Source: Candidatus Oxydemutatoraceae bacterium
GTDB lineage: Bacteria > Pseudomonadota > Gammaproteobacteria > Poriferisulfidales > Oxydemutatoraceae
DNA: 64,000 nt
Reading direction: 5' to 3'
Assembly: GCA_965220085.1 (NCBI GenBank)
Contig: CBDCOZ010000003.1
Coordinates: 1,216,001 to 1,280,000, forward strand
Positions 22,852 through 62,838 of the stretch are shown in pieces. The notes under the pieces were generated by a model. It did no database searches. It was not told where the DNA came from and saw only the letters and a list, made by a program, of their open reading frames with translations. The position numbers were made by a program, and so were the translations under genes. The stretch's first letter is position 1. Every line of letters begins with the position of its first letter.

Positions 22852-23589
22852 CTATCGCAACGGGCCTTCCAGAAAGATGCGCAAGCGCATCCGTAATCCC
22901 GTGAAAACGCATTGACCGCCGACGAGGGGGGAGAGTCCGCCGTGCGGGGCTGAGGAGCGAGTCGCGCCTTGTCGGATATGTGACGGTTTCGCGCATCTGC
23001 ATTCAATCGCGCCAATGGTGTTGATGGTTGCCGGAATCAAACCGCGCGTCCCGTCCGGGTCGCAGTTGTAAACGTATCGCGAATCGCTTCCGTCCTCCGG
23101 TCTTTGCGGAAACTCCAAGTTGGGGCCAAAAGCGTCGTAGCAATTGCCGCCGGAAGAGTATGTGCACTGACTGCCCGTGCTACCGCTGGCAAGGTCCCAA
23201 TGCCCCACCAGACACCGGCTGAGAGAGATAACGGATTGCCAACCTCTCTCCTCGCATTTTTCTTTCGGCATCACGCATCTGCGATCCAACGTCACTTTTC
23301 CCGTCGGACAAGTTTTCACGCATTCGTTTCCGTCACGGAATTCGTCCGTTGCGCAGGATTGTGCTTGGGCCTGAGCGGATACGATGAAAAAGGCGAGCAG
23401 AAAGAGCGACCGGAGGCCGCACCTGCTTAACTTAATGTGGAGGGGGGGGGGGGGGGGGCAAACGGATGCTAACGTGCTTGCACGGAATTGTGCGGCGTTA
23501 AAAAGCGCGGTGCGGGTTTTCAACCTTCCGCAGAAGATTTGAATCGTGCGTCCGCGAATGAAAGAGTTCGGAGTCATATTGCAAATCAT
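22852..23589 (-). CDS. Exported Cys-rich protein, LEGPLR family member 1 (poly-C17, in frame)
   Basis: Conserved leader, G17 at 23442-23458, signal peptide ending AQAQAQ, many Cys, ends LRMRLRIFLEGPLR*. Confidence 0.8.
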   Translation of the reverse strand: MICNMTPNSFIRGRTIQIFCGRLKTRTALFNAAQFRASTLASVCPPPPPLHIKLSRCGLRSLFLLAFFIVSAQAQAQSCATDEFRDGNECVKTCPTGKVTLDRRCVMPKEKCEERGWQSVISLSRCLVGHWDLASGSTGSQCTYSSGGNCYDAFGPNLEFPQRPEDGSDSRYVYNCDPDGTRGLIPATINTIGAIECRCAKPSHIRQGATRSSAPHGGLSPLVGGQCVFTGLRMRLRIFLEGPLR

Positions 23590-23612
23590 ATCACAAACCT
23601 CTATAAAAAATT

Positions 23613-23716
23613 CACAAACAACTGAGTGTTGTTTGTGCTCTTATTACCGTGCCTCATTAAATGCCGTTTGCGTACACAGAAGTCCACACTATATACGATT
23701 TGCACCCGCCTTGCAA
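23613..23716 (-). promoter_or_regulatory. Sigma70-like promoter TTGCAA-N17-TATAGT plus palindrome CACAAACAAC-TGAGT-GTTGTTTGTG
   Basis: -35 at 23711-23716, -10 at 23688-23693, palindrome at 23613-23637; conserved in paralogous leaders. Confidence 0.6.
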
Positions 23717-23779
23717 CTGGCGCATTTATCTTTGTAACGCCTACATTATATAGACTATTCCTAAGCCTTGTGCTTGCAC

Positions 23780-24152
23780 TGGTCACACGCTCCCCTCGCA
23801 GGAGAAGCGCAGAGTCCGCTATAACTCCGAGCTTTTTTGAAAGTTGCAGAATTCGATCCACAGGCGATGGATGATGCAGTGAAGAGAAAGCTTCGTACTT
23901 GCGCCGACCACACGCTCCCCTCGCAGGAGAAGCGCAGAGTCCGCTATAACTCCGAGTTTTTTTGACAGTCGCAGAATTCGAGCTACAGGTGGCGGACGAT
24001 GCAAAGAGTGTTACTTGCACCATGCAAGGGGTGAGTGTTACTCGCACTAGGCAACGGAGAGTGTCGCTTGCGCCAGGCAAGGGGAGCGTGTCACTCGCAC
24101 TCGGCAAGGGGTGAGTGTTGCTTGCGCTAAGCAAGGAGAAATGTCGCTTGCA
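23780..24152. repeat. Inter-cassette repeats: ~120-bp units plus a degenerate ~28-30-bp tandem array
   Basis: GAGTCCGCTATAACTCCGAG units, then GAGTGTTACTTGCAC-like units running up to the gene stop codon. Confidence 0.75.
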
Positions 24153-25712
24153 CTACCGCAACGGGCCTTCAAGAAAGAGACGCAGGCGCAAGCGTATATT
24201 GGCTCTGACCACCGGCGCAACGGAAGTCCAACAACGCATCTCGCTACCGCCGTCATCATCATCAAAGGCGGCGCAGACACGGAGGAGTTTGCCCGCCTGC
24301 CCCTGCATGGGAGCGAAGGTCGCAGAGGCAGCGCCGGGGATATTCGTGATATCGTCGGGCAACTGCGGTGCGCGGGCGAAAAGGCACTCAACAAACTGCC
24401 GATAAGTTGAGTCGGTGTTTCCGATGCACACCAAATTCTCGTCAATTTCATTAAACATGTGAGTGGCGAGAGACCGCGAAGGTCCGCTTGTTTGGAGACC
24501 GTCAAAAATTTGCTGAACGGCATCCAGCATGTCGCCATAGTTTTCGTCGCGGACGAGATAGGACACAAACGCGGTCAGCACGGCATCTCCGATGTCCATA
24601 AGGCCCTGATGCGTCTGTGCGTCCCTTGCGGCGACTATCCCGTCGTATATTTCCTTCGCCGTTCCCGTGAGGGTGGCGGTGGAGACGGTCGCAGTTTCAA
24701 CTTCCTGCCACTGCCAGACGGGGGCGAAGGCAGTGATGTCATTGGCATCGTCTATCGTGCCGATGGATGCGGTCAGTGTGCTGCCCACATTGGGCCCGTC
24801 CATGGTCAGGTCAGCGCCGTCCGCCGCCGTCACCGCCGGTTCGCCGCTGGCTACAGCGTTGACCTTCGCAACGGAAGTCCAGCAACGCGTCTCGCTGTTG
24901 CCGGCATCATCATCAAAGGCGACGCAGACACGAAGGAATTTGCCCGCCTGCGCCTGCATGGGAGCGAAGGCCTCAGCGGTAGCGCCAGGGATATTCGTGA
25001 CATCAGGCATCTGCGGAATTTGAGAGAACAAGCAATGCGTGTATGTCTTTCTGAAAATGTTGCCGCTGCCGACGCACGGCGAGCGGTTAACCCCGCTGGC
25101 CTGCTCCACCACTTCAAAAAGGGCTCCGCCGCTGGCGAAAACTTGTCCGGAAGCGTCATTGGCAAGCGCTCCAAGCGAATGGGTCTCGTAATAGTCGTCG
25201 TCGCGCAGAAGGTAAGACACAAACGCGTCTCGATACGCCATTGCCGCCGTCGCCAATATCGTGTTGGGCGAGGAAAACCACGCCGTGAACCCGTCATAAA
25301 CCTCCTTCGCCGTTCCCGTGGTCGCAACTTCAACCTCCTGCCACTGCCAGACGATGGCGCCATCGGCATCGGCTATCGTGCCCGTAGTTGCGGTCAGCAC
25401 ACTGTTCACATTGGGCCCGTTCGTGGTCAGGTCGGTGCCGTCCGCCGCCGTGACCGCCGGTTCGCCAGCAACGGCAGTGTTGGTCTGCGCCTGCGCTTGA
25501 CCGCAGACGATGATTAGGGCGAGCAGAAAGAGCGACCGGAGGCCGCACCTGCTTAACTTAATGTGGCAAAGGGGGGGGGGGGGGGGGGGGGGGTAAACGG
25601 ATGCTAACGTGCTTGCACGGAATTGTGCGGCGTTAAAAAGCGCGGTGCGGGTTTTCAACCTTCCGCAGAAGATTTGAATCGCGCGTCCGCGAACGAAAGA
25701 GTTCAGAGTCAT
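24153..25712 (-). CDS. Exported protein with two Ig-like repeats, LEGPLR family member 2 (poly-C23, in frame)
   Basis: G23 at 25571-25593; signal peptide; two GEPAVTAADG...WQWQ...RVC..F.DD repeats; ends IRLRLRLFLEGPLR*. Confidence 0.85.
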   Translation of the reverse strand: MTLNSFVRGRAIQIFCGRLKTRTALFNAAQFRASTLASVYPPPPPPPLCHIKLSRCGLRSLFLLALIIVCGQAQAQTNTAVAGEPAVTAADGTDLTTNGPNVNSVLTATTGTIADADGAIVWQWQEVEVATTGTAKEVYDGFTAWFSSPNTILATAAMAYRDAFVSYLLRDDDYYETHSLGALANDASGQVFASGGALFEVVEQASGVNRSPCVGSGNIFRKTYTHCLFSQIPQMPDVTNIPGATAEAFAPMQAQAGKFLRVCVAFDDDAGNSETRCWTSVAKVNAVASGEPAVTAADGADLTMDGPNVGSTLTASIGTIDDANDITAFAPVWQWQEVETATVSTATLTGTAKEIYDGIVAARDAQTHQGLMDIGDAVLTAFVSYLVRDENYGDMLDAVQQIFDGLQTSGPSRSLATHMFNEIDENLVCIGNTDSTYRQFVECLFARAPQLPDDITNIPGAASATFAPMQGQAGKLLRVCAAFDDDDGGSEMRCWTSVAPVVRANIRLRLRLFLEGPLR

Positions 25713-25735
25713 ATCACAAACCTCTATAAAAAATT

Positions 25736-25848
25736 CACAAATAACTAAGCGTTATTTGCGTACATATCTTCCTATATCCCGCGAGCAACTAAGTGTTGTT
25801 TGCGTGCACAGAAGCCCACACTATACACGATTTGCACCCGCCTTGCAA
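25736..25848 (-). promoter_or_regulatory. Promoter TTGCAA-N17-TATAGT and 25-bp palindrome
   Basis: -35 at 25843-25848, -10 at 25820-25825, palindrome at 25736-25760. Confidence 0.6.
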
Positions 25849-26879
25849 CTGGCTGTATGATGCCAGTACATATTGGAAACTTTGGGCAAATATTGTGTAA
25901 TTTGTGCCATAGGTGTTTGGAGCCTCAATCCATAATGTGGTCGTTGGGTATTAAACCATAGCAGGTAGTCTATCATACGCTCATTGAATTCCCGAATATC
26001 GGTCAGCAACAAGCCCTCTTCAAACTCCACAAACTCTTCCTGGAGCGTGCGGTTAAAGCGTTCATTGAATGCGTTCATCTTCGGACATTTGGGATACGTG
26101 TAGCAGTGCCGGATACCTTGCTCTTGCAGGCAGCGATCAAACGCGCCGCAGAACTCGGAGCCGTTGTCGGTGAGCACTTGCTCTATCTTGGCGGGGAACA
26201 CTTCCATCATCAGCTTCATAAAGAACTCGGCGGCGATGCTGTTGCCACGAGGGACGCCGATAGCAAAGCCAAACCGGCTATGCAAATCTACGGCCGTGAA
26301 CAGATAGCGACGCTGACCTTGAATAAACCGTTGCACGGTATCCATAGCGATGCAATGCCCGATACGCTTTGCATTGAAACCCTTTTCAAGACGCTCCTTG
26401 CGCTTGCTTTGCGGTGTGCGTTGCCGACGCGGTTTTGCGGGCACCCAGCGCATCTTATCGGCTTCGCCGGCAATCAGTCGCGCGATGGTGCGCGGCTTGG
26501 GACAACGCAAGCCGCGCTCGTCACACCACGGTTGAATCAGCAGGTATATCTTGGGTGCGCCGTAGGGATAGTTTTCGCGGTGTCGCCGAATCTCGGCGAT
26601 AATCTCCTCAGGCCAGTTGCGCCGGCGTGGCTGGCGCGGGCAAGTGCTCTGATTGATTAAGCCGTTAATGCCATAAAGCCGATATTGTCTCCGCCACTCA
26701 TAGAGTGATGATTTGCTGATGTGGTAAGCGTCCATGCTGGCTTTTATGTTGTGGTTCTCCCATAATATAAGGGCTTCAAGTTTCTGTTTTGCTTTATAGC
26801 TCATAGTTGCCTCGTCTATTGAAAAAGCAGCTATTTTATAGAAACCTTTGATGCCGTGGCCGATGTGTTGATATTGCAT
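25821..26879 (-). CDS. IS481-family DDE transposase
   Basis: N-terminal HTH, MDT, TDNGSEF, NERFNRTLQEEF and N.QRPH motifs; stop codon lies in flanking DNA. Confidence 0.88.
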   Translation of the reverse strand: MQYQHIGHGIKGFYKIAAFSIDEATMSYKAKQKLEALILWENHNIKASMDAYHISKSSLYEWRRQYRLYGINGLINQSTCPRQPRRRNWPEEIIAEIRRHRENYPYGAPKIYLLIQPWCDERGLRCPKPRTIARLIAGEADKMRWVPAKPRRQRTPQSKRKERLEKGFNAKRIGHCIAMDTVQRFIQGQRRYLFTAVDLHSRFGFAIGVPRGNSIAAEFFMKLMMEVFPAKIEQVLTDNGSEFCGAFDRCLQEQGIRHCYTYPKCPKMNAFNERFNRTLQEEFVEFEEGLLLTDIREFNERMIDYLLWFNTQRPHYGLRLQTPMAQITQYLPKVSNMYWHHTASCKAGANRV

Positions 26880-26934
26880 GTCGGCTACGTTTGTTGTTGA
26901 AGCCAAGAATCCAGAATGTTTCTGGCATTATGCA
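25854..26934 (-). mobile_element. IS481-family insertion sequence (~1.08 kb)
   Basis: Imperfect IRs TGTATGATGCCAG.. and ..CTGGCATTATGCA; interrupts a leader that is intact at ~29040-29060. Confidence 0.8.
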
Positions 26935-26989
26935 CCAGCGCATTTGCCTGTGGCAATGCCTGCATTATATAGACTATTCCTAAGCGTTG

Positions 26990-27533
26990 TACTTGCGCCG
27001 GTCACACGCTCCTCAGCGGGGGAGGCGCAGAGTCCGCTATGACTCCGAACTTTTTTGAAAGTTGCAGAGCCCGAGCCACAGGCGATAGACGATGCAGTGA
27101 AGAGAAAGCTTCGTGCTTGCGCCGGTCACACGCTCCTCAGCGGGGGAGGCGCAGAGTCCGCTATGACTCCGAACTTTTTTGAAAGTTGCAGAGCCCGAGC
27201 CACAGGCGATAGACGATGCAGTGAAGAGAAAGCTTCGTGCTTGCGCCGGCCACACTCTCCTCGAGAGAGAGTCGCAAAGTCCGAGCCACAGGCGATGGAC
27301 GATGCGGTGAAGAGAAAGCTTCGTGCTTGCGCCAACTACACTTCCTCTCTGGTGCGCTTGCGGAGATAGTGCGAGGAACGTACCGGAGTAACTACCGCCA
27401 GTCAGCCCCCAAGGAAGCATGTGTGCAAGTCCCGCGAAGGAATTGCTTCCCGCTACCGCAACGGAGAATGTTACTTGCACCATGCAAGGAGTGAGTGTTA
27501 CTCGCACTACCGCAAAGGAAGGTGTCACTTGCA
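26990..27533. repeat. Inter-cassette repeats: tandem ~121-bp units, a REP-like fragment and a ~30-bp array
   Basis: CCGGTCACACGCTCCTCAGCGGGGGAGGCGCAGAGTCCGC repeated at ~26998 and ~27122. Confidence 0.75.
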
Positions 27534-28908
27534 CTACCGCAACGGGCCTTCCAGGAAGATGCGCAACCGCAAGCGCAAACTGCCGGGCACAACACGGGCG
27601 GCGACGGAGCAGAGCGTCTCGCTGACCGGCATCGGATGGCTGTCCATGAAACTTGCGCAGACTCTTATGTATTGTCCCACCTGCTCCTGGCCTGGGGTGA
27701 ATATGGTGGTGGTGGCATCGGTGATGGCGGAGTAGTCGTTATCCGCCGGGGTGCCGGAGTCCGGGGCAACGGCCTGTTGCCATTGCCACATCAGGGTGCT
27801 GCCATCTATGCCGTTAGGTTCGGTTATGCCTCCTACGCCAGTAGACAGCCGGGTGCCCTCGGCGTAGGTCGGGTTCTCTGCAGTGGTGACCGGGATTATG
27901 CCAGGTCTGCCAGAGGCGGCGACCTGAGCCGCCACCACCAGACGAATGCTGGCTATGGCGTTGTTGGTGCTGGTTTTGTTGTCGGTGCCATCGCTGCCAT
28001 CGTCCACCACATTGAAGTTGAAAGAGGTGTAAGCGTCGCCAAGGTCGTCGGGGTCGTTGGGCTCCTGGCCTGATTCCGGGTAATAGGTCAGTTCCCTGGC
28101 GGTCAGTTGGGCCACAGTTATTTCCATTGTGGGAACATCGGCGTTGGTCAGGACTGTGCCATCCAGAGCCATAGTGCCGCGGAATGGCAATGTTTGTACG
28201 ATGACGGCAGCCAGCATATCGTCATCGGCATCGGTGAGCGGGAAGTCGGTTGCCTTGAATATGTATGGGTTGGCGGCATTGGCGTTGACATTTACCGTGA
28301 GCGCTCTTGTGGTGAATAAATTGCTTGCCGTCGGCTTGTCATTGATGTTGGCCACGGCGGTGGCTATCTGCAGGCATCGCATCTCCGAGTTGGGGGTGGT
28401 GGCCATATCCATGAACGATGCGCAGACCTGCAGAAACTTGCCCACCTCATCATCGCCCGGAATGAAAGCGGCATTGGTCGCGCCGGCTATGGCGGTGTAG
28501 GTGCCGCCGTTGGCGGTGGCCGCGCTCCATTGCCAACTGAATGTGCCCAAGCCATCGGTGTCGGCTATGGCGGTGGAACCGTTGCCGCCGTTGGCAGTGA
28601 TGGCGGAGTCCTCAGTGGGGGTGTTGCCGCTGGCGTAGGTGACGGCGGGTGTGCCGGTGGCCGGGCTGTTGCTCTGCGCTTGCGCCTGAGCGGATAAAAT
28701 GAAAAATGTGAGCAGAAAAAGTGACCGGAAGCCGCACCCGCTTAACTTAATGCGGAGGGGGGGGGGGGGGGGGGGGGTAAACGGATGCTAACGTGCTTGC
28801 ACGGAATTGTGCGACGTTAAAAAGCGCGGTGCGGGTTTTTAACCTCCCGCAGAAAATTTGAATCGCGCGTCCGCGAATGAAAGAGTTCGGAGCCATATCA
28901 CAAATCAT
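27534..28908 (-). pseudogene. LEGPLR family member 3, Ig/cadherin-like repeats; frameshifted at poly-C21 (phase-OFF or homopolymer error)
   Basis: Leader MICDMAPNSFIRGR from 28908 hits TAA after G21 (28757-28777); the other frame gives the signal peptide and runs open to LRLRLRIFLEGPLR* at 27534. Confidence 0.8.
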
Positions 28909-28931
28909 ATCACAAACCTCTATAAAAAATT

Positions 28932-29044
28932 CACAAATAACTAAGCGTTATTTGCGTACATATCTTCCTATATCCCGCGAGCAACTAAGTGTTGTTTGCG
29001 TACACAGAAGCCCACACTATACACGATTTGCACCCGCCTTGCAA
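28932..29044 (-). promoter_or_regulatory. Promoter TTGCAA-N17-TATAGT and 25-bp palindrome
   Basis: -35 at 29039-29044, -10 at 29016-29021, palindrome at 28932-28956. Confidence 0.6.
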
Positions 29045-29099
29045 CCAGCGCATTTGCCTGTGGCAATGCCTGCATTATATAGACTATTCCTAAGCGTTG

Positions 29100-29321
29100 T
29101 ACTTGCGCCGGTCACACGCTCCTCAGCGGGGGAGGCGCAGAGCCCGCTATGACTCCGAACTTTTTTGAGAGTCCGAGCCACAGGCGGTGGACGATGCAAA
29201 GAATGTTACTTGCACTAAGCAACGGAGAATGTTGCTTGCGCTCAGCAAGGGGTGAGTGTTGCTTGCACTACCGCAAGGGGCGAGTGTTACTTGCACCAGA
29301 CAAGGGTGAGTGTTACTTGCG
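29100..29321. repeat. Inter-cassette repeats (partial 120-bp unit plus ~30-bp array)
   Basis: Same units as 23780-24152. Confidence 0.7.
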
Positions 29322-29407
29322 CTACCGCAACGCCCCTTCAAGAAAGATGCGCAACCGCAACAGCAAGCGCAAGGGGCGCACACGAGCGGCGACAGAGCAG
29401 AGCGGGG
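29322..29407 (-). pseudogene. 3' remnant of a LEGPLR family gene
   Basis: Hand translation gives PLCSVAARVRPLRLLLRLRIFLEGALR*; no leader or signal peptide upstream. Confidence 0.75.
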
Positions 29408-29539
29408 TCGCGCGCGCCCGGCGCATCTGATTGGTCGCGCCGTTTTGATTTGCCCGCCGGAGACATCCGAACCGCTTATCGGGCGCGCCGGTCACGCCGC
29501 TCGTGTCAGTGCGCTGATATTTTTAAGTATGCAAGCCCC

Positions 29540-29761
29540 TTATTTTTTGCGGTAAGTGATGCGCCCGCGTGTGAGGTCGTAGGGGCTCATTTCTACTGTT
29601 ACGCGGTCGCCCGTTAATATTCGTATATAATGCTTACGCATTTTTCCCGATATGTGCGCAATGATTTTGTGATCGTTTTTATCGAGCTTAACCCGAAACA
29701 TTGCGTTGGGCAGGACTTCAAAAACAGTCCCTTCCATTTCAAAGTGTTCTTCTTTTGCCAT
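29540..29761 (-). CDS. infA: Translation initiation factor IF-1
   Basis: MAKEE...[34 protein letters not shown]. Confidence 0.97.
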
Positions 29762-29827
29762 ATATAATTTGCTGAAATAAAAACACATATTATCGGATAT
29801 TTGAACAATAACTCAAGGCTTGATTCC

Positions 29828-30787: not shown

Positions 30788-30833
30788 TAAAAACCCTCAT
30801 GACTCTAGCAGCCGATCATTACGCACCAATCCG

Positions 30834-31577: not shown

Positions 31578-31601
31578 TGATAAAACAAACAGGAGAAAAC
31601 A

Positions 31602-31838
31602 ATGAGTGACAACATAGAAAGCAGGGTACATAAAATTGTGGCCGAGCAACTGGGAGTGGAAGAGAGCAAAGTGACGCCCGATGCATCTTTTGTAAACGAT
31701 CTCAATGCGGACTCTCTTGACACGGTCGAGCTGGTGATGGCGCTGGAAGAAGAGTTTGAGTGCAATATCCCCGATGAAGAAGCCGAAAAATTGACGACCG
31801 TCGGCGAAGCAATCGAGTATATAAAATCTCATTTGTGA
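31602..31838 (+). CDS. acpP: Acyl carrier protein
   Basis: [20 protein letters not shown] motif. Confidence 0.97.
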
Positions 31839-31886
31839 CCCGCCGCAACACGAGGCTCTTGCACCGAACTCCTTGGAGGTAGCGCT

Positions 31887-33134: not shown

Positions 33135-33145
33135 AGCCCGCGCCG

Positions 33146-44796: not shown

Positions 44797-44925
44797 AGAA
44801 ATAGGGGAATTATGTATTTAACTTGACAGAGGCGGATTATGTCAGGCAGGAAACTTGACAAAGATACCAGTACGCTATATACCTATATCTTAATTCGTTG
44901 TTAAACCACTTTGGGGATTAGGACT

Positions 44926-45846
44926 ATGAGTAAGAGAAAAGCAGAAATATTAAGCCTATATCAGATTATGGAGCAATACCCGACCGATGAAGCGACCATA
45001 CGATACCTTGAAAGTCTGGCATGGAGTGATAAGCCGGTATGTTCCAAATGCGGATGTGATAACAAAATTACAGAGCAAAAGAAAGCTGGCGATTATTGGT
45101 GCGGTAGCTGTCGTTCATACTTCAATGTATTCACCAATACACCGCTAGAGCGGAATAAAGTAGATGCCAGAAAATGGGTTTATGCTTCCTATACCCTGCT
45201 CACTTCACGCAAAGGGATAAGCAGTCTGCAATTAAGCAAAGAGATTGGAGTGCAACAAAGAACAGCGTGGTATATGCTTCACCGCTTGCGGGTTATATGT
45301 GGCGGGGATATGCAGGCGCTGCATGGGCAAGTAGAGACAGATGAAACTTATATCGGCGGCAAGGAGAAAAACCGCCATCCCAACAAGAAAAAGCGGGCGG
45401 GTCGCGGTGGTGCTGGCAAGACTGCTATACTGGGTATGCGAGAGCGTAAAGGCAGAGTAAAGGCCATGCCAGTAGAGAACACTACAAAGGAAACACTACA
45501 GACCGCCGTACATAAAAATGTCCGCAAGGGTTCTACCCTTTTTACTGATGAAAACCCCTCATACAATGGTGTTGCCAATCGCCACTATGCGGTTAATCAT
45601 TCTGCGAAGGAATATGTAAATGGTATGGCGCACACTAACGGCATAGAATCCGTATGGGCTGTACTCAAGAGAGGTTTTAGCGGTGTGTATCACAACTGGA
45701 GTAAGAAGCATTGCAGGGCTTATGTCAATGAGTTTTCCTTCCGTCTTAACGATGGCAATTGTGAGATAGATACCCAAGACAGATTAAACAGTTTGTTTGC
45801 CGGTATGCACGGCAAGCAGATTACTTATAAGGAATTGACAGGATGA
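44926..45846 (+). CDS. IS1595-family transposase
   Basis: Zn ribbon, KGISSLQL, VETDETYIGG, TDE, HTNGIESVW and Y.NEF.FR motifs. Confidence 0.93.
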   Translation: MSKRKAEILSLYQIMEQYPTDEATIRYLESLAWSDKPVCSKCGCDNKITEQKKAGDYWCGSCRSYFNVFTNTPLERNKVDARKWVYASYTLLTSRKGISSLQLSKEIGVQQRTAWYMLHRLRVICGGDMQALHGQVETDETYIGGKEKNRHPNKKKRAGRGGAGKTAILGMRERKGRVKAMPVENTTKETLQTAVHKNVRKGSTLFTDENPSYNGVANRHYAVNHSAKEYVNGMAHTNGIESVWAVLKRGFSGVYHNWSKKHCRAYVNEFSFRLNDGNCEIDTQDRLNSLFAGMHGKQITYKELTG

Positions 45847-46197: not shown

Positions 46198-47817
46198 ATG
46201 AAAAAAGAAATTTATAATACTACCCCCCCCCATGTAAATAGAAATAGGGGGATTGCGGGTACTTGGCTCTATGGCCTCGTCGCCCTCTTCCTGCCGCCAT
46301 CCCATATAGACTCGCCATACACCGCACAGTTGCGCTACCCGATTTCGCCCGGGCTTTCGCTGTGGTTGCGGCTTGTGGCGCTGTTCGCACCCGCACGGGC
46401 GGCGGTGCATGGCATCGGCTGGGCCGCCATGCATTGTCTGCTGACCCTGTGCCTGGCATTGGGCGCGAACTGGGCGAATGCCCAAGCTCAGGACAGCAGA
46501 ATTGATGTCCCTGTTGGCAACGATATGCATATATTCGATGCAACAGACTTCGGAGCCAGACTCGGTAACAGTGTAACCTTCATCTCCCGCCCCACTTATG
46601 GCAGACTGATTGATCTCTCTGACAATAACATGGTGGAAATCAGAGGAGATGTGCTTGCTGGCGAGCCTGGAGATGTTTTCTTCGCCCACGAACTCAACGG
46701 CGAGAATGATGGCAGCGGCGCCGCATACACACTCCCGGCCGATGCCATCTCTGTCGCCAACGGTTATGACAGTTTTGCTTTCTCGATAGAGGCCGGGGGT
46801 GTCAGTACCGAGGCCATCATGACTATCAATCTGGTGGGAGCGTCCACGCAGATGGCCGCCAGCGGTGCGCCCACTGTTGCGGCCGCCATGGGCCACACCG
46901 CCTATAACGTCGGTGTGCCGCTGACTGCTTCCATCACAGGTGTGACTGAGCTCAACGGCATCAATGTGGAAACTCTGGCATGGAAGTGGCAACAGGCCGA
47001 TGCCCCCGCCAGTGGTGCTCCCATGGCCAGTGCCTACAGCGATATAGCGGGAGCCACTGCCACGGGCGCAGCTTCCTCAGACTTCACACCGCTTGTCGCC
47101 CATGCTGGAAAGTACATACGGGTCTGTGCCGCATTCATGGATCAGTTTTCCACTCCGGCGGCCTCAGGAGATCTGTGCAGCACCGGCAGCCAGGTGACCA
47201 ATGCGCCATTCTTTGGCGATGCATCGGTGGATGATCAAGTCTGGGTGACCGGCACCGCCATAGCCGCCCTGGTTCTGCCTGAGGCCATGTTTGGCAATGG
47301 CACATTGACTTACAGCCTGATCCCCACAAGCCTGCCCACCGGCCTCTCCTTTGATGCAGTCACCCGCACTATCAGCGGCACCCCGACGGCGACAACTTCA
47401 CAGCCGTCCTCATATGTTTGGTCTGTTGCCGATGACGACGGCGATACAACCACGCTGCTCTTCGATATAGAAATCAGTGCCGATGCAAAACCGGCCTTTG
47501 CCACCGAGGCGGCCATCGCCGACCAGACCTGGATTACCGGCACCGCCATAACCGACCTGGTGTTGCCTGCGGCCACCGGCGGCAATGGTGCGCTGACCTA
47601 TACCCTGACCCCGGCACTGCCCGCGGGCCTGAGCCTTGATGTCGCCACCCGCACCATCAGCGGCACACCCACGGCGGCGGCGCAGAGCAACTATACATGG
47701 ACAGCGGCGGATGCCGACAACAACACTGCAAGCAGCGATACGACCAGCCTGACTTTCAGCGTCATCTCAAATATACGCTTGCGCCTGCGCCTCTTTCTTG
47801 AGGGGCCGCTACGATAG
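46198..47817 (+). CDS. Exported Ig-like (He_PIG-type) repeat protein, LEGPLR family member (poly-C9)
   Basis: C9 at 46223-46231; ANAQAQ cleavage site; two LP.GLS.D..TRTISGTPT repeats; ends IRLRLRLFLEGPLR*. Confidence 0.85.
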   Translation: MKKEIYNTTPPHVNRNRGIAGTWLYGLVALFLPPSHIDSPYTAQLRYPISPGLSLWLRLVALFAPARAAVHGIGWAAMHCLLTLCLALGANWANAQAQDSRIDVPVGNDMHIFDATDFGARLGNSVTFISRPTYGRLIDLSDNNMVEIRGDVLAGEPGDVFFAHELNGENDGSGAAYTLPADAISVANGYDSFAFSIEAGGVSTEAIMTINLVGASTQMAASGAPTVAAAMGHTAYNVGVPLTASITGVTELNGINVETLAWKWQQADAPASGAPMASAYSDIAGATATGAASSDFTPLVAHAGKYIRVCAAFMDQFSTPAASGDLCSTGSQVTNAPFFGDASVDDQVWVTGTAIAALVLPEAMFGNGTLTYSLIPTSLPTGLSFDAVTRTISGTPTATTSQPSSYVWSVADDDGDTTTLLFDIEISADAKPAFATEAAIADQTWITGTAITDLVLPAATGGNGALTYTLTPALPAGLSLDVATRTISGTPTAAAQSNYTWTAADADNNTASSDTTSLTFSVISNIRLRLRLFLEGPLR

Positions 47818-49083: not shown

Positions 49084-49115
49084 TGGGAATCCGACCGATG
49101 AGTAACTGGCAATGC

Positions 49116-50575: not shown

Positions 50576-50580
50576 CGGAT

Positions 50581-51102: not shown

Positions 51103-51109
51103 AGTACTT

Positions 51110-53407: not shown

Positions 53408-53426
53408 GTTGTTGCAATGCGGGCGC

Positions 53427-54800: not shown

Positions 54801-54804
54801 AAAT

Positions 54805-55983: not shown

Positions 55984-56852
55984 GGGTTCGTATTCCACCC
56001 GATCAGGGCGGCGAAGCCGAGTAAGAAGATCGGCGCGGCGGCGATAGAAGAGTCGATACGGTCGACGATGCCGCCGTGCCCCGGCAACAAATTGCCGCTG
56101 TTTTTAACCCCTGCCAGCCGCTTGGCCATGCTCGCTGTCAAATCACCGATGATGCTGCTCAAACCGGTCAGAACCGACAGCATGATGAAGTTAATAATAT
56201 CTGGTAACCCAATGAGATAGCCCGCAAAGTTCATGCTTCCTATCAGCCCCGAATGCAGTAGCCAGGCCATCGCTCCTGCGAGCGCGATCATCGCCCCGAG
56301 TGCGCCGACGACCCCCGCGCGGGTTTTGCCCTGACTCAACTCCGGACACAACGGTGTGCGTCCGAAACGACGTCCCGAGTAATATGCGGCGATGTCACAC
56401 CCGGCAACCAGAGTGATCAGATACAAAAGCCAGATCCAACTTTGCGCGTGTAACTGATAGATTGCAAACCAACACGCCGGCAACGCGATAACAATATGCG
56501 CGCGCAATACGCGCGCAAACCATTTCCGGCGGCACAGCGATCGTGTAAAGCAAGTCGTCAGAAAGAGCATGCCGCCCCACCATATCGCGACGGGAACGAG
56601 CACAAAGGTTGCTGACCGGTAACGTATCAAAGCGGCACACACGAACAAGCAAACTATCGGGTATGCCCAACACATCGCGTTTTTTTCCACCAACTTCCCC
56701 CACTCCAAAGCGGCCAATGCGACGACGAAGAGGAAGGCTCCCGCCAGCGCCTGCGTCGGCACATAGCCGATAGCCGCGACTGCCGCCGCCGCCATGATAA
56801 CGCCGGTGCAGACCCGTCGGCGGCTGTCGCTGCTTGTTTGTTCGCCGCTCAT
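55980..56852 (-). CDS. cdsA: Phosphatidate cytidylyltransferase
   Basis: S.GKT and KR.AGVKNSG.LLPGHGG..DR.DS motifs. Confidence 0.93.
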   Translation of the reverse strand: MSGEQTSSDSRRRVCTGVIMAAAAVAAIGYVPTQALAGAFLFVVALAALEWGKLVEKNAMCWAYPIVCLFVCAALIRYRSATFVLVPVAIWWGGMLFLTTCFTRSLCRRKWFARVLRAHIVIALPACWFAIYQLHAQSWIWLLYLITLVAGCDIAAYYSGRRFGRTPLCPELSQGKTRAGVVGALGAMIALAGAMAWLLHSGLIGSMNFAGYLIGLPDIINFIMLSVLTGLSSIIGDLTASMAKRLAGVKNSGNLLPGHGGIVDRIDSSIAAAPIFLLGFAALIGWNTNP

Positions 56853-57556
56853 TTAACTGTGCCAAACTTTCTGTCGCGTTGTCCGAACCACTTTATCGCA
56901 TCCAAATATTTGCGCTTGTCAAAGTCCGGCCACAAGGTGTCGGTGAAGTACAACTCCGCATAAGCGCTTTGCCATAAGAGAAAATTACTCAGACGGTTCT
57001 CACCGCCCGTGCGTATCAGCAGGTCGACATCGCCGACGCTGCTGTGCGCCAACTGTCGCCCGATGGCGGCTTCAATCTGTCCGCAATCAAGAGCGCTTCC
57101 CGACCCTTCGCGCATCAATTTCTCGCAAGCATGCGCAATGTCCCAGCGGCCGCCATAACTCAGCGCAATATTCAATTGCAGTTGCCGCATACCCGCAGTC
57201 GCCCGCTCGGCGTTGGCTATCTCCTTCGACAATTTGCCGGCAAGCCGGGCGCGGTCTCCGATAAAACGAAGGCGCACTTCGTTTTCCATCAACTCATCCA
57301 GATACTTATGCAGCGATGCGGAAAACAGCATCAGCAAAGTCCGCACTTCAACCTGCGGTCGTTTCCAGTTCTCACTGCTGAAGGTAAAAAGGGTCAATGC
57401 CCGTACGCCGTATTCCACGCTGGCCTTGACGATTTCGCGGACTACTTCGACCCCTTTGCGATGGCCGCAGGTTCTTTCGCGGTTGTGGGATTCCGCCCAG
57501 CGCCCGTTGCCATCCATGACAATAGCAACATGCGCGGGACATACTCGGTCGGTCAT
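56849..57556 (-). CDS. uppS: Undecaprenyl diphosphate synthase
   Basis: MDGNGRWA, FSSENWKRP and RTGGE.RLSNFLLWQ motifs. Confidence 0.96.
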   Translation of the reverse strand: MTDRVCPAHVAIVMDGNGRWAESHNRERTCGHRKGVEVVREIVKASVEYGVRALTLFTFSSENWKRPQVEVRTLLMLFSASLHKYLDELMENEVRLRFIGDRARLAGKLSKEIANAERATAGMRQLQLNIALSYGGRWDIAHACEKLMREGSGSALDCGQIEAAIGRQLAHSSVGDVDLLIRTGGENRLSNFLLWQSAYAELYFTDTLWPDFDKRKYLDAIKWFGQRDRKFGTVK

Positions 57557-58116
57557 CAGACTGCCATCAATTCGGCTTCTTTCTGTTCCAGAATCTCGTC
57601 TATCTTTTTAATCTTGGCGCTGCTCAATTTATCCACCGATGCCTGCGCCAGCTTTTCTTCGTCCTCGCCCATCGCCGAATTTTTGACCGCATCTTTCAGA
57701 TGGCGGATGGCATCGCGCCGGATGTTGCGCACCGCGACCCGCGCCGACTCGCCATACTGGCGCACGACCTTAGTCAACTCTTTGCGTCGTTCCTCGGTCA
57801 GCGCAGGCATCGGGATTCGCATGACGGTACCCTGCACGACGGGATTGAGCCCCAGCCCCGCCGCCACAATCGCTTTCTCAATCACCTCGACCATATTCTT
57901 CTCCCATACCGTCAGCACCAGGTTTCTGGATTCTTCCACCGTGATATTGGATACCTGATTGAGCGGCGCCCGGCTGCCATAATACTCCACGGTAATGTGC
58001 TCCAGCAGGCTGGGGTGAGCGCGTCCGGTTCTGATCTTTTGCAACTCGGAGACAAGCGTCGCCACGCTCTTGTCCATGTTTTTCTCAACCGCTTGGCTGT
58101 TTAAAGTATCGCTCAT
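57556..58116 (-). CDS. frr: Ribosome recycling factor
   Basis: IRTGRAHP, LTEERRKEL and RNIRRD motifs. Confidence 0.96.
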   Translation of the reverse strand: MSDTLNSQAVEKNMDKSVATLVSELQKIRTGRAHPSLLEHITVEYYGSRAPLNQVSNITVEESRNLVLTVWEKNMVEVIEKAIVAAGLGLNPVVQGTVMRIPMPALTEERRKELTKVVRQYGESARVAVRNIRRDAIRHLKDAVKNSAMGEDEEKLAQASVDKLSSAKIKKIDEILEQKEAELMAV

Positions 58117-58121
58117 CGTAA

Positions 58122-58883
58122 TCAGGCCTCGCTTGAAATTAAAGTTCCGCATTCCTCATTGCGCAGAATCGTGCCGAGGGCGCCGACCTTATGCATATTG
58201 AATACCCGGATAGGTATTCCGTTGTCGCGGCACAACACAATCGCCATCGTATCCATCGCCGCCAACTTATCTTTGATGACCTGATCATAACTCAGGCTGG
58301 CATACATCGTCGCATCGGGATGGCGCTCCGGGTCCTTATTGTAAACGCCGTCGACTTTGGTCGCTTTCAGCAGCAAGGTCGCGTTGATTTCAACCGCGCG
58401 CAAACTGGCGGCGGTATCGGTGGTGAAAAACGGATTGCCGGTGCCGGCGGCAAAGATGGTAATCAGCCCTTTCTCCAGATGGCGCATCGCGCGCCGGCGG
58501 ATATAGCTCTCGCAGACCGCATTGATCTCAATCGCCGACATGACCCGCGTTTGCATGCCGCTGCGCTCCAGCGCCTCCTGTAGCGCAAGCGCATTGATCA
58601 CAGTGGCCAACATTCCCATCTGGTCCGCGGTGACCGGGTCAATCCTGGCGCTTGAAGAATCTCTGCCTCGGAATATATTGCCGCCGCCGATGACGATAGC
58701 AATCTCTATGTCTCTTTCGCGCGCTTGTTTGATCTCGCCGACCAAGTGATTGACAGCGGCAATATCGATGCCGTGCTTCTTCCCCCCCATGAGGATTTCG
58801 CCGCTCAATTTGAGAATAACCCGTTGCTTCCCGATCTGTAAGGGTTTGTTCTCTGCTTTCAGCGCGGCAGGTTTCGGAGTCAT
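58122..58883 (-). CDS. pyrH: UMP kinase
   Basis: [14 protein letters not shown] and GNPFFTTD motifs. Confidence 0.97.
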
Positions 58884-59752
58884 TGAATCTGAGCCATGAC
58901 TTCTTCGACAAAGTTCTCTTTTTTCTTCTCTATCCCTTCGCCGATTTCATAGCGGTGAAAGCTGTTCATGGTCGCCGATGCTTTCTGCAACAATTGGCCG
59001 ATGGTCACATCGGGGTCTTTGACAAACGGCTGACCGACCAGCGTAATCTCCTTGAGAAATTTCTTCATCCGCCCGCGCACCATCTTGTCGACGATATCGG
59101 CGGGCTTGCCTTCGGCGGCGGCCTGCTCGGTTAAAAACGCTCTCTCTTTATCCGCCATCTCGGCGGGCACGTCGTCTTCGCTGATAAATTGCGGACGGCT
59201 GGCCGCAATATGCAATGCGATATCTTTCGCCAGCGTTGCGTCGCCGCCTTGCATATCCGCAACCACACCGATGCGGGTGTTATGCATATAGACCGCGTGC
59301 GCATCGCCATCCAGCGGGATGCGAACAAAACGCCGTACTTGGATATTTTCTCCGGTCTTAATCACCAGAGTCTTGCGGGTGTCTTCAACGGAGTCCGCGC
59401 CGATTGCAAGCTTGGCGAGCGCCTCGCCGTCGGCCGGGTTTGCCTCCAGCGCCGCTTGTGCGACACGATGACAGAATGATTGAAAGCTCTTTTCTTTGGC
59501 GACAAAATCGGTTTCGCAATTCACTTCCAGCAACAGAGCCGCCGATTTGTCGTCGGCAACCGCCACGCTGATCAGACCTTCCGCGGCAATCCGCGCGGCT
59601 TTGTTATCGGCCTTGGCCTGCCCCGCTTTGCGCAACAACTCAACCGCCCTCTCCATATCCCCGTCGGCTTCGGTCAGAGACTTCTTGCACTCCATCATTC
59701 CGGCGCCGGTTCGCTGCCGCAATTCTTTGACCATTAAAGGAGTGATTTGCAT
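58880..59752 (-). CDS. tsf: Elongation factor Ts
   Basis: [10 protein letters not shown] and [10 protein letters not shown] motifs. Confidence 0.97.
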
Positions 59753-59764
59753 CGCCTGAGAATG

Positions 59765-60565
59765 CTACTCGCGCGCGTCCGCCGCATCGTCGTCGTCATC
59801 GGCGATGAGCGGCGCCGTCGGCGCAACCGTTTCTTTTGCCTTGTCGCTTTCGGCAACGACATCAAGCCCCTGCCTCTGACGTTCGTCGCGCCCTTCGATG
59901 ACCGCATCCGCAAACGCCGAGGCGTATAGCTTGATAGAACTGATGCTGTCGTCGTTGGCCGGAATCACATAATCTATGCCGTCGAGCGAGTTATTGGTAT
60001 CAACCACCGCCACCAGCGGGATGCCAAGCCGCACCGCCTCTTGTATCGCGATGCTCTCGTAGCCCACATCGATTACAAACAAGGCATCGGGCAGGTGGCC
60101 CATCTCTTTTATGCCTTCAAAGTTCCGCCGCAGTTTGAGGTATCTGCGGCGCATCTTCTGCGCGTCCTTTTTGCTCATGCCGCCCAACACGCCCTTGTTC
60201 TCGACCACATCCTGAAGCTCTTTGTATTTGTTGATTGACACGCGCAAGGTTCTGTAATTCGTCAACGTGCCGCCGAGCCAATGATGATTCACATACGGCA
60301 TTTCGCAACGTCTTGCCTGATCCCGAATCGCAAGCGAAGCGGCTCTCTTGGTGCCGACAAAAAGCACAGTCTTGCCATCGAACGCCAAGTCCCGAACGAA
60401 CGCCAACGCATCTTTTAGCATCGGCAACGTCTTATCCAAGTTTATGATGTGAATGCCATTGTGTTTGCCGTAGATGTACGGAGCGATTTGCGGATTCCAA
60501 TAACGAGGGCGGTGGCCCAAGTGCGCTCCGGCGGCAAACAAATTTTGTATAGTTGTTTCAGTCAT
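59765..60565 (-). CDS. rpsB: 30S ribosomal protein S2
   Basis: AGAHLGH...WNP, WLGGTLTN and PANDD motifs. Confidence 0.97.
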   Translation of the reverse strand: MTETTIQNLFAAGAHLGHRPRYWNPQIAPYIYGKHNGIHIINLDKTLPMLKDALAFVRDLAFDGKTVLFVGTKRAASLAIRDQARRCEMPYVNHHWLGGTLTNYRTLRVSINKYKELQDVVENKGVLGGMSKKDAQKMRRRYLKLRRNFEGIKEMGHLPDALFVIDVGYESIAIQEAVRLGIPLVAVVDTNNSLDGIDYVIPANDDSISSIKLYASAFADAVIEGRDERQRQGLDVVAESDKAKETVAPTAPLIADDDDDAADARE

Positions 60566-60696
60566 TCAAATCTGGCGTATCAAACGGGAGTCGCCCCCCA
60601 AGATAATTTAGCCGACCATTATAACCATCTCTGCCGTTTGAAGCAATAACAAATTGTATGTTGCCAAGACCTATCGGACACCCGGGGCAACTCGCG

Positions 60697-62031
60697 CTAC
60701 CGCAACGGGCCTTCCAGGAAGAGCCGCAACCGCAAGCTCAGGCCCATCAGGTTTATCGTCAGGGTGGCATCCTCTCTGGCCTGATTGGTGCTGACATTGA
60801 TGGTCTCGCAAAGGAACCCGCCGGCATCGAGTCTGCATAGTCTTGTTGAGGCGCTGCTGGCGCCGGTGTCCAGCACTCTATATGCGAGGGTTGCGTAACC
60901 CGCTGTGCCGGCGGCGGCATCGGCTTCCGGATAGTATGCCAGAGCATCCAGCTGGGCCAGTGTCAACTCGGTGTCGGCGGCTATGGTGACACTGGCATCG
61001 CCCACTACCAGCAGGGTGCCCCGTTCGGGCGGGGTGATTATGCGGATGCCATTGATGGTGTCGCCGTCCTCATCCTCAAAGGGGAAGTTGCCCCGCACAA
61101 AGCGGTGCGGATTGGCGGAGCTGGCAGTGCTCGCTACCCAGACGGCGCTGTCGCCGCCCACGGGCCAGTCGCTCACGGCTGTTATTCGGCTGCTTGCGGA
61201 GCACAACGGCCCCTCGCTACCGGAGGGAGAATGCAAGTCCATGAAACTGACACAGACGCGAATGTACTGGCCCACCTGCTCCTGCATGGGCTGGTAGAAC
61301 TGGGTGGTCTCACCGCTGATGGCGGCGTAGGCGCCGGTCTCGGTGGCGGACTGTTCCCATTGCCATTTCAGGGTCTCGCTGTCTATGCCGTTGAGGTCAC
61401 TAACATTGCCAAGTGCGGTCTGGAGCGGCGTATCCTCGCTGTATGTGGTACCGCTGGCACCGGTGTCCAGGGTGCCCACTCTGGGCGCGCCAGTTGCGGA
61501 AACCTGCGCGGATGCGCGCAGGCTGATGGTGATGGTGCCGTTGTTGGCCGAGGATTCGCCGGCGGTCGTGACGCTGAATGTGAAGGAGGTGTATCCGGCC
61601 TGCGCACTCTGCCCCGCTTCCGGATAATAAGTGATGGTGCCGATGCTGGCGGTTGCCACAGTCTCATTCACAGTGGCGGCGGAGCTGCCCACCCTCAGTG
61701 TGCCGAGGGATGGCAGGCTCTTTATCGTGATGCTGTCCAGGTCATCATCATCGTCCACTTCCGTAAAAGGGAAGTCGTCCTCCTCAAAGGTGTACGGGCT
61801 GTTGGCGGTGGCATTGTGCAATACCCAGATGGTTTTGTGGTTGGCAGATGGCTTGGCTTGAGCGGCCGAGACAGCCGGGTCCGCATCGTTGTGCGGTTGC
61901 GCCTGCGCCTGTGCGCAGATAACAAACAGGGCTGGCAGAACCAGCGACCAGAGGCTAAACCGAGTTAGTCTTGCCCGCTGATGCGGGGGGGGGGGGGGGG
62001 GGGGGGTAGTATTATAAGTTTTTTGCTTCAT
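60697..62031 (-). CDS. Exported Ig/cadherin-like repeat protein, LEGPLR family member (poly-C22, in frame)
   Basis: G22 at 61985-62006; signal peptide ending AQAQAQ; ends LRLRLFLEGPLR*. Confidence 0.85.
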   Translation of the reverse strand: MKQKTYNTTPPPPPPPHQRARLTRFSLWSLVLPALFVICAQAQAQPHNDADPAVSAAQAKPSANHKTIWVLHNATANSPYTFEEDDFPFTEVDDDDDLDSITIKSLPSLGTLRVGSSAATVNETVATASIGTITYYPEAGQSAQAGYTSFTFSVTTAGESSANNGTITISLRASAQVSATGAPRVGTLDTGASGTTYSEDTPLQTALGNVSDLNGIDSETLKWQWEQSATETGAYAAISGETTQFYQPMQEQVGQYIRVCVSFMDLHSPSGSEGPLCSASSRITAVSDWPVGGDSAVWVASTASSANPHRFVRGNFPFEDEDGDTINGIRIITPPERGTLLVVGDASVTIAADTELTLAQLDALAYYPEADAAAGTAGYATLAYRVLDTGASSASTRLCRLDAGGFLCETINVSTNQAREDATLTINLMGLSLRLRLFLEGPLR

Positions 62032-62049
62032 AGTTCTTCTCCTTATGGT

Positions 62050-62282
62050 TTAAGTTTCATGAATGCAGATGTACTAATGAGTGCTGGGCACTCTGCCACA
62101 AAATGCAAGTTATCTATAAATTCTGTATCTCCTATTTCTAGCAAATGTAATTATACATGCAATTATACAATGAGTACTACGCTATAAATAATCCACAAAC
62201 AACTGAGTGTTGTTTGTGCTCCACAAACTGTTCATTGTTTCCCTCATCTAGCGCACTCTACCACAAAACGCAACATTTGCAA
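62050..62282 (-). promoter_or_regulatory. Family leader: TTGCAA-N16-TAGAGT and palindrome at 62194-62218
   Basis: Palindrome identical to 23613-23637. Confidence 0.55.
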
Positions 62283-62424
62283 GTCGCCGTTGCTCAGAGC
62301 ATTACACCCAGAGTCAGGTTGCGCTCTGCCACAAAATGCAAGTCCTTTGCAAGCGCTTTTTGCATCCTGCCTCACTCCCCTTGGGTGCGCCCACAACACT
62401 CCCCTCCTCCGCCAGTCACTCGCG

Positions 62425-62838
62425 CTATCGCAACGGGCCTTCCAGGAAAAGGCGCAGCCGCAAGCGCAGACTGTCCGGAGGGGGATCCACCAGGTCTATG
62501 GTGAGGACGGCTATGTTGGCGCTGGTTGTTCGCTACCATCGCTAGCGGCCTGATTAGCGCTGACATGGATTGTGTGGCAAAGGAAACTGTCGTCGCCATC
62601 AGATGCGCATAGTCTTGATGAGGCGCTGCCGGCACCGGTGTCCGGCACTCTATATATCAGGATTGCGTAACCCGCTGTGACAGTGACATTAGCTTCCGGA
62701 TAGTATGCCAGGGTATCCAACTGGGCCAGTGTCAACTCGGTGTCTGCGGCTATGGTGACACTGGCATCGCCTGCCACGGCCAGAGCGCCCCGTGCGGGCG
62801 GAGTGATTATGCGGATGCCATTGATGGTGTCGCCATCG
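62425..62838 (-). pseudogene. 5'-truncated, frameshifted LEGPLR family paralog
   Basis: Close to the 3' third of 60697-62031 (DGDTINGIRIITPP..., AADTELTLAQLD); ends DSLRLRLRLFLEGPLR* after a frameshift. Confidence 0.8.

Follow-up and report, generated by a model that had tools for sequence, protein, structure and literature searches.

What would a peptide of 14 residues do at the very end of proteins whose other parts differ? The question is raised by a 64,000-nucleotide (nt) stretch, here called the window, of contig CBDCOZ010000003.1 (positions 1,216,001 to 1,280,000) of Candidatus Oxydemutatoraceae bacterium, a sponge-associated gammaproteobacterium. Several genes of the window, coding for putative exported proteins, finish with the same short tail, FLEG(P/A)LR, directly followed by a stop codon. 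A first-pass annotation had seen in this tail a candidate undescribed signal, acting as a β-strand docking or export tag. The analysis presented here leads to a more precise proposal, which we hold to be probable without being secure: the tail would be the detached strand 1 of an anchoring module similar to XDoc, the X-module plus type II dockerin of cellulosomal scaffoldins, and a separate adaptor protein would rebuild this module in trans and thereby dock the cargo.

Conservation of the tail

A degenerate DNA pattern for F-L-E-G-(P/A)-L-R-TAG, run over the whole window with six-frame translation of its matches, recovers exactly the seven annotated sites (Table 1) and none in 100 dinucleotide-preserving shuffles of the window. 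All seven translate to ..(L/M)RLR(L/I)FLEG(P/A)LR-stop; the sole further FLEG of the window, at 19479, is unrelated. The sites terminate five long frames and two remnants, and each of the five long copies has, as annotated, a hydrophobic, signal-peptide-like stretch ending in AQAQ(AQ). The diversity ascribed to the passengers holds in part: a He_PIG match in Pfam is solid (E 1.9e-20), but the Big_9, Furin-like and ZirU matches stay under the curated cut-offs of Pfam and NCBIfam.

The family is far larger than the seven members first described. In the source genome (G000; 2,492,841 bp, 55.8% G+C, three contigs, two of which are called C1 and C3 below), the motif occurs at 218 six-frame sites, of which 213 have a stop immediately after it; it is thus not mostly internal. 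These 213 terminal copies use TAG (135), TAA (50) and TGA (28), and TAG, taken at first for the universal end, is one of three. Read-through or recoding at TAG, considered because all seven window copies end with this codon, is rejected since the two other stops are also used genome-wide. A looser rule ([LIVMF]F[LIVM]EGxxx-stop) retrieves 215 frames, the final residues of which are PLR in 213 cases, SLR in one and ALR in one; the last residue is Arg in 215/215 tails, and Q, E, N or P in relatives. Measured from stop to stop, 186 of the 215 frames have at least 150 amino acids (aa) and 15 at least 1000, with a maximum of 15,193 aa. The 186 long frames span 488,673 nt, i.e. 19.6% of the genome, and a crude text rule finds a signal-peptide-like stretch in 98 of them.

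The tail is conserved at the peptide level. Across the 213 terminal copies, the 11 motif codons display 99-100% amino-acid identity, except at one L/I/V position, while each position uses two to eight different codons, and nucleotides vary only at third positions and, in Leu codons, at the first. The residues PLR that follow FLEG are invariant although the search expression did not demand them. Upstream, at codons -10 to -4, the share of the top residue is merely 0.13-0.29; past the stop, some 6-10 nt are weakly conserved and nothing further on. Sister genera keep the same peptide in other codons and with other downstream DNA. Because the changes in the motif are almost all synonymous, three stops are used and relatives recode the same peptide, the tail is a selected peptide, as the first-pass annotation had deduced from the window copies, rather than a repeat in the DNA, and selection also acts on its terminal position. 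Since conservation ends ~6-10 nt beyond the stop, the hairpin repeats that follow several of these genes are a feature apart from the tag.

The distribution of the tail was examined in 19 genomes of the family (G000 and 18 sisters), using a strict DNA pattern (FLEGPxx-stop, or [PA] plus two residues) and, as had been suggested at the outset, a profile, here of the 20 last residues; 22 genomes from three other families of the order were searched for FLEGP(L/F)R-stop. Among the 19 family genomes, FLEGPxx-stop gives 214 matches in G000, 12-34 in each of the five genomes of genus g3 and 5 in G012, against 0-1 for a reversed-pattern control. Tails of the sister genera include IRVRVKVFLEGPLR, LLRVKLFLEGPFR, ..FLEGPLQ, ..FLEGALE and ..FLEGAVIP, each before a stop. 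The profile extends the finding across genera with variant tails in genera g2 and g4 (..RIRVFLEGALE, ..FLEGALN, ..FLEGAVIP and ..FLEGPYEYR, all terminal); it recovers variants overlooked by the strict pattern, such as the FLEGAVIP ends of G006 and G010. In genus g3 the tails end giant frames of 3,000-19,000 aa. FLEGP(L/F)R-stop has no match in the 22 genomes of the three other families. The resulting consensus is (L/I)R(L/V)R(L/V)(R/K)(L/V/I)FLEGP(L/F)(R/Q)-COOH.

Three paralogues of the source genome, at C1:23868-25292, C1:36358-38001 and C3:1171425-1173515 (L121, L122, L123), bear the tag near the N-terminus, followed by GGSSS. They have a common leader, MKKLL..VWANPMTVPQDVL.., and two of them are PPC-repeat proteins; the third, L122, contains a GGSSGGG stretch and has no Pfam match. 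The occurrence of the tag near the N-terminus of these three proteins, before a GGSSS sequence, suggests a docking peptide rather than an end-dependent signal.

A putative strand-less adaptor and the split domain

In three g3 genomes (G015, G017 and G002), a giant gene ending in ..LLRVKLFLEGPFR is followed, 20-35 nt on, by a gene for a signal-peptide protein of 276-287 aa. These putative adaptors share the motifs VVDWVLxELR, ARKPAFLLSNGRVVDA and RHRNHLD, together with two loops of the D-x-N-x-D-G type. The source genome encodes exactly one homologue, P0006 (322 aa, C3:469169-470137; tblastn E 1.4e-20, profile E 1.5e-65), located ~747 kb from the window. Twelve further stand-alone adaptors are found in six sister genomes, all strand-less and with signal peptides.

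A HMMER search with P0006 over 1.84 billion proteins returns 1050 relatives at E <= 0.001, which fall into two forms. Among the matches listed, the 36 closest (258-1083 aa) comprise 34 proteins without an h-x-h-h-[LIVM]-[EQ]-G strand, the other two being multi-domain; of the next 114 listed, 78 carry hKhFLEGP/A ~50 residues before the DWV motif. The consensus of this complete form reads ..KVFLEGPYxxxGxMxTxLNxxxxIPLxQPY..VVDWVLVELR..HRNHLAVMSA.., and the tail motif is thus found here in cis, within the domain. Profile-profile alignment of strand-less and complete forms gives a probability of 100% and an E of 1.9e-54, and locates the split point: the KVFLEGPY columns face the end of the adaptor signal peptide, and the next x-x-M-x-T-x-L is where the mature protein begins. 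Since the signal-peptide end falls on exactly these columns, the mature adaptor and the tail, which comprises the strand and P-L-R, form complementary pieces of one domain, with no overlap and no gap.

The fused state exists within the same family. G001 gives 26 matches to the adaptor profile, all inside frames of 1,272-17,496 aa, and has no FLEGPxx-stop tail; in each of the five frames inspected (5/5), the strand followed by the domain forms the end, as in ..AGVYLEGAYRVATGDMGTFLNRALPRVQPY..VVDWMLLELR..QHRNHLPILSA..GDVNADG... That the two pieces are fused in this genome and split elsewhere argues that tail and adaptor probably work together. A metagenome scan for more strand-less adaptors kept 80 loci, nearly all with the complete domain, and no tail. 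One metagenome contig, L175, bears a stand-alone adaptor-like gene that is apparently strand-less and has a signal peptide; this contig is short and holds no tail gene.

Predicted fold of the complete domain

Neither Pfam nor NCBIfam has a model for the complete domain or for the adaptor. An AlphaFold2 model of the complete G001 domain, computed from a 28-sequence alignment, has a mean predicted local distance difference test score (pLDDT) of 73.9 and a predicted TM-score (pTM) of 0.75; its FLEG-type strand (E76-83) reaches a pLDDT of ~96. The best matches of this model in the PDB, according to Foldseek, are XDoc chains of Clostridium thermocellum (5k39_B, 5g5d_B, 4u3s_B, 2b59_B and 5m0y_B), with probabilities of 0.98-1.0 and TMt values of 0.5-0.63, none of them reaching E <= 0.001. 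Against 48,161 representative chains, VIA-align ranks 3kcp_A (Z 9.8) and 5g5d_B (Z 9.3) ahead of a third chain at Z 4.7; for 5g5d_B, 155/156 residues are aligned with a root-mean-square deviation of 4.3 (model 77-335 on chain 8-163). In addition, the C-terminal third of the adaptor profile matches many solved dockerins weakly (E 0.008-0.1), and the sole match of the Pfam dockerin family (PF00404) is the G015 adaptor, at 15.8 bits against a cut-off of 22.9, i.e. sub-threshold. Because the model matches XDoc chains with both programs and the profile weakly matches dockerins, the complete domain is predicted to be XDoc-like, an immunoglobulin (Ig)-like X-module followed by a dockerin-like pair of calcium loops, of which the tail would be X-module strand 1.

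The two alternatives of the first-pass annotation, docking or export, can be separated on this basis. The docking tag is favored because the tail matches strand 1 of an XDoc-like domain, the strand-less remainder of which is encoded separately; export gained no support. No described family of C-terminal sorting signals fits; the tag would be a detached piece of a known fold and not an invention from nothing.

The adaptor locus and possible surface anchoring

In the source genome, a rhodanese gene and a cluster of type II secretion genes, for GspD (428.9 bits), GspG and GspK, lie upstream of P0006, and a complete type II secretion system (T2SS) is encoded in this genome. P0007 (1369 aa) follows P0006 and terminates in ..GGGGGGGGAIALNEVIGLLALLGLVAYGIRRQRRYE, consisting of eight Gly, a hydrophobic/transmembrane (TM) helix and RRQRRYE. 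The next gene encodes a rhombosortase, which matches TIGR03902 at 96 bits (cut-off, 84). P0007 therefore has the Gly-rich motif, the TM helix and the basic residues of a GlyGly-CTERM substrate, in a genome that encodes a rhombosortase; among its NCBIfam matches listed there is no GlyGly-CTERM model, only choice-of-anchor U, at 30.3 bits for a cut-off of 32. According to published work (PMC6219818, PMC3237569 and PMC13393428), GlyGly-CTERM proteins are cut by rhombosortase and retained at the surface after type II secretion. The same gene order, including GspE and a rhombosortase (139 bits), occurs in G015, and it is partly kept in G006, G010, G013 and G009. A second secretin-like frame of the source genome, at C3:561625-562737, scores 144.9 bits with GspD, under the cut-off. 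An in-frame TAG interrupts it once, and the gene may be broken or may encode a different secretin.

The genes downstream of adaptors have in common an N-terminal module with a conserved C-x-x-C. This module is single-copy in the source genome, in P0007, and is present in 16 of the 18 sister genomes and in none of the 22 genomes of the other families. It begins right after 21 of 25 stand-alone adaptors (10 genomes), the other four being inner members of tandem adaptor arrays. In G009, one gene of 650 codons (L030:10148-12097) fuses the module to a strand-less adaptor domain. In the g3 giants of G015, G017 and G002 (e.g. L017:2268-12827), the module stands at the N-terminus and the tail at the C-terminus of the same protein; such proteins could form head-to-tail chains via tail, adaptor and module. 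A word-index search with residues 20-420 of P0007 matched only P0007 itself. In the ESM Atlas the best score for the module is 0.87, and a cluster at 0.84, 13% of whose members carry a Cohesin, is a lead only.

Poly-C tracts

Four of the five long window copies have a run of 17-23 C just past or near the start codon, and the fifth a run of 9 C. In member 3, the run of 21 C puts the leader out of frame with the start codon (phase OFF). Homopolymers of 9 or more C or G number 90 in the source genome, and a crude text rule detects a stretch of 8 or more C or G close to the 5' end in 83 of the 186 long family frames. These tracts look like a device for slipped-strand phase variation of the repertoire.

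Proposed mechanism and alternatives

The proposed scheme starts from an ancestral-like fused module at the end of giant surface proteins, the gene of which would have been split in the source genome and in most of the family: the cargo would retain the strand and then stop, and the remaining module would be made once, as the Sec-exported P0006. Sec would export both cargo and adaptor. The cargo tail would then be inserted in the adaptor as its missing edge strand, a donor-strand complementation in trans, and XDoc would be rebuilt. The dockerin-like half of P0006 would in turn bind the Cys-x-x-Cys N-terminal module of P0007, itself presumably lipid-anchored and delivered to the surface by the adjacent T2SS, and the poly-C tracts would determine which cargo genes are on. 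In its widest form, for which our confidence is evenly balanced, this is a natural "tag and catcher": the 14-residue strand would be a universal, position-tolerant tag on about a tenth of the genes (~215, many of them poly-C-switched), one secreted catcher would plug any cargo onto one lipid-anchored scaffold, and sister genera would chain giants head to tail.

Several observations weigh against this scheme. P0006 itself has no Pfam match, and its dockerin-like part is degenerate, with an insertion. No cohesin is detected in P0007 with Pfam or NCBIfam; hhalign of its module against the cohesin-bearing P0055 gives a probability of 0.1%, and an AlphaFold2 model of the module (8 orthologues) has a pLDDT of 43.3 and is unusable. 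G001, which has the fused domain, has no Cys-x-x-Cys module. Adjacency of tail and adaptor genes had to be rejected as a general rule: it is seen in five cases only (G015, G017 and G002), which are probably one or two independent events, and in none of the 12 further adaptors inspected. The co-occurrence is imperfect: G013 has an adaptor and no tail match, the tail matches of G009 are weak (best E 0.086), and G014, 85% complete, has 9 tail matches and no adaptor. Neither G001 nor the complete-domain relatives have, in their in-cis strands, the Arg-rich extension of the tails (RxRxR/K), and given this extension the tail may have gained a second role. Finally, proteins as large as 15,193 aa would be unusual substrates for a type II system.

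The same Arg-rich extension speaks for a different role, in which a secretion machine, for instance the T2SS or an outer-membrane translocon, would itself recognize the tail as a signal for export or sorting, the likeness to a strand being then merely historical. The exactly C-terminal position of 213 of the 218 copies, with their fixed PLR-COOH, and the complete T2SS of the genome agree with such a signal. The three proteins tagged near the N-terminus, before a Gly/Ser linker, are a poor fit to the need for a free C-terminus, and an export signal leaves unexplained why strand-less adaptors exist, are conserved and are exactly complementary to the tail; furthermore, linear C-terminal peptides are not known among the signals described for T2SS. 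We consider this explanation unlikely. Still less likely, and improbable in our view, is that the tail serves as donor strand for the polymerisation of cargo on cargo, in pilus-like or daisy-chain fibers. Its alternating hydrophobics are those of donor strands of chaperone-usher and type V pili, and in g3, where giants have the adaptor-associated module at their N-terminus, head-to-tail chains through adaptors are conceivable; however, this module is single-copy in the source genome, in P0007, and the passengers next to the tails are unrelated folds with no common acceptor domain.

Two further explanations deny the tail any docking role. It could be the dead relic of a truncated ancestral C-terminal XDoc, as the fused ancestor-like state of G001 might suggest, or a degradation or quality-control mark for a periplasmic protease, for which the GGSSGGG stretch of L122 resembles, by eye only, a serine-protease motif in a protein without a Pfam match. 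A relic would decay, whereas no other part of the 213 genes, which otherwise diverge, is as well conserved as the tail, and the tail persists across genera; nothing tested supports a degradation mark; this pair of explanations is accordingly very improbable. The tail could also be a DNA element, either an anchor for recombination or gene conversion or a part of the hairpin repeats, translated without any role for the peptide. The 26-27-bp repeats after several tails and the weak conservation of ~6-10 nt past the stop would fit, but invariant first and second codon positions beside free third and Leu first positions, with three different stops, largely refute it, as does the retention of the peptide in sister genera with different codons and downstream DNA. 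We regard it as barely credible. Docking through a strand-less adaptor is thus the explanation that we prefer.

Comparison with known systems

XDoc of cellulosomal scaffoldins binds type II cohesins on anchoring proteins, as CipA does with SdbA, OlpB and ScaC. The complete form described here would have the same two-part fold as XDoc of C. thermocellum, with two dockerin-like calcium-loop repeats, and it is similarly located at the C-terminus of very large surface proteins, where XDoc serves to attach a large assembly to an anchored surface protein. The differences are marked: the X-module would be split between two genes, strand 1 being carried by ~215 cargos and the remainder produced once; the host, a Gram-negative gammaproteobacterium, offers no cellulosome context, and no cohesin is detected in the presumed receptor; the presumed anchor relies on a Gly-rich/TM tail and rhombosortase, not on S-layer homology (SLH) domains or sortase.

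Chaperone-usher pili and type V pili (FimA/Mfa of Bacteroidia) contain an Ig-like fold without one of its edge strands, which a short strand of another polypeptide, with alternating hydrophobics, supplies; the donor strand of type V pili is C-terminal. The resemblance lies in adaptors that are devoid of exactly the strand-1 columns and in a tail, L-R-L-R-L-F-L, that alternates hydrophobics and would be the donor. In contrast to pili, no polymer of like subunits would be involved: one acceptor, which is XDoc-like and not a pilin, would serve hundreds of unrelated cargos. No chaperone or usher was identified, and no search was directed at them. SpyTag/SpyCatcher is an engineered split of the CnaB2 domain, in which a strand tag of 13 residues works at either end of a protein and forms an isopeptide bond. 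Here too, the peptide tag would be a strand cut from an Ig-like domain that is rebuilt with the rest, but the pair is natural and not man-made, and there is no sign of a covalent bond.

Established terminal signals fit the tail less well. P0007, and P0007 only, resembles the substrates of GlyGly-CTERM/rhombosortase/T2SS display, such as Vibrio cholerae VesB, by its Gly-run, helix and basic cluster and by the rhombosortase and T2SS genes. Unlike GlyGly-CTERM, PEP-CTERM, LPXTG and MYXO-CTERM signals, the 215 tails have neither TM helix nor basic cluster and stop three residues after FLEG; no CTERM model of NCBIfam or Pfam matches them. An autotransporter (type Va) origin is rejected, PF03797 being over its cut-off in 0/19 family genomes, with no match at E <= 0.001 in the source genome, and the tail having just 11-14 residues. 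An outer-membrane β-signal is rejected as well: the tail ends in Arg (215/215) and not in an aromatic residue, and no barrel domain precedes it. The same holds for type I secretion substrates, given the Sec-like leaders ending in AQAQ of the five long window members and the absence of RTX repeats in Pfam searches. Full-text searches of the literature with strings of the tail and of the domain returned no relevant paper.

Organization of the window

The family members of the window are interspersed with housekeeping operons (clpB-like; fabD/fabF; rpsB-tsf-pyrH-frr-uppS-cdsA-dxr-rseP-bamA-lpxD-lpxA) and with two insertion sequence (IS) elements (Table 1). Each unit of the hairpin repeats contains GCAAG..CTTGC, and the arrays directly follow the stop codons of several family genes; these repeats are not conserved across the whole tail family. 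Other tandem repeats and a restriction endonuclease gene are also found beside family genes.

Table 1. Family genes, repeats and neighboring elements of the 64,000-nt window (positions counted from its first nucleotide)
Feature	Position	Strand	Length or copies	Details
Family member 1	22852..23589	-	245 aa	17-C run near 5' end; signal peptide ending SAQAQAQ; Cys-rich passenger; tail GLRMRLRIFLEGPLR-TAG at 22852
Family member 2	24153..25712	-	519 aa	23-C run 25571-25593; signal peptide ending GQAQAQ; two repeated passenger modules; tail NIRLRLRLFLEGPLR-TAG at 24153
Family member 3	27534..28787	-	338/417 aa (417-aa stop-to-stop frame)	21-C run 28757-28777; tail SLRLRLRIFLEGPLR-TAG at 27534
Remnant	29322..29522	-	66-aa frame	ends LLLRLRIFLEGALR-TAG at 29322
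Family member 4	46198..47817	+	539 aa	9-C run; leader ending NAQAQ; two He_PIG domains; tail NIRLRLRLFLEGPLR-TAG at 47817
Family member 5	60697..62031	-	444 aa	22-C run 61985-62006 directly after start codon; leader ending CAQAQAQ; Ig-like passenger; tail LSLRLRLFLEGPLR-TAG at 60697
Remnant	62425..62532	-	35-aa frame	ends SLRLRLRLFLEGPLR-TAG at 62425
26-27-bp tandem hairpin repeat	24005..24155		5.7 copies	directly downstream of member 2 tail
Similar 26-27-bp hairpin array	29200-29324		4.7 copies	
Similar 26-27-bp hairpin array	22799-22854		2.2 copies	
124-bp tandem repeat	26992-27283		2.4 copies	95% matches; downstream of gene 27534
86-bp repeat	27184-27347			overlaps the 124-bp repeat
rve-type IS integrase	25821-26906	-		beside family genes
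IS1595-family transposase	44911-45846	+		low-G+C stretch (43%), beside family genes
TdeIII-type restriction endonuclease	62968-63807	-		beside family genes

Significance

What is added here is the probable identity of the tail as a detached XDoc strand, together with a specific putative adaptor, a specific candidate anchor and a fused, ancestor-like state. We rate the proposal as a combination of anchoring of the XDoc/cohesin type with donor-strand complementation. If confirmed, it would be the first natural split Ig-like anchoring module known to us to serve as a genome-wide docking tag in a Gram-negative bacterium, in keeping with the negative full-text searches for peptide strings. The hypothesis is directly testable with two recombinant proteins, and the peptide/adaptor pair would be ready-made for protein engineering. 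A widespread domain absent from Pfam, with 1050 relatives, would receive a name, and assembly of the cohesin-dockerin type would extend beyond cellulosomes. For the bacterium, ~215 often phase-variable genes would share a tag of 14 residues instead of carrying an anchor of 250 residues each, which would explain how a variable surface repertoire can occupy one fifth of a symbiont-type genome of 2.5 Mb.

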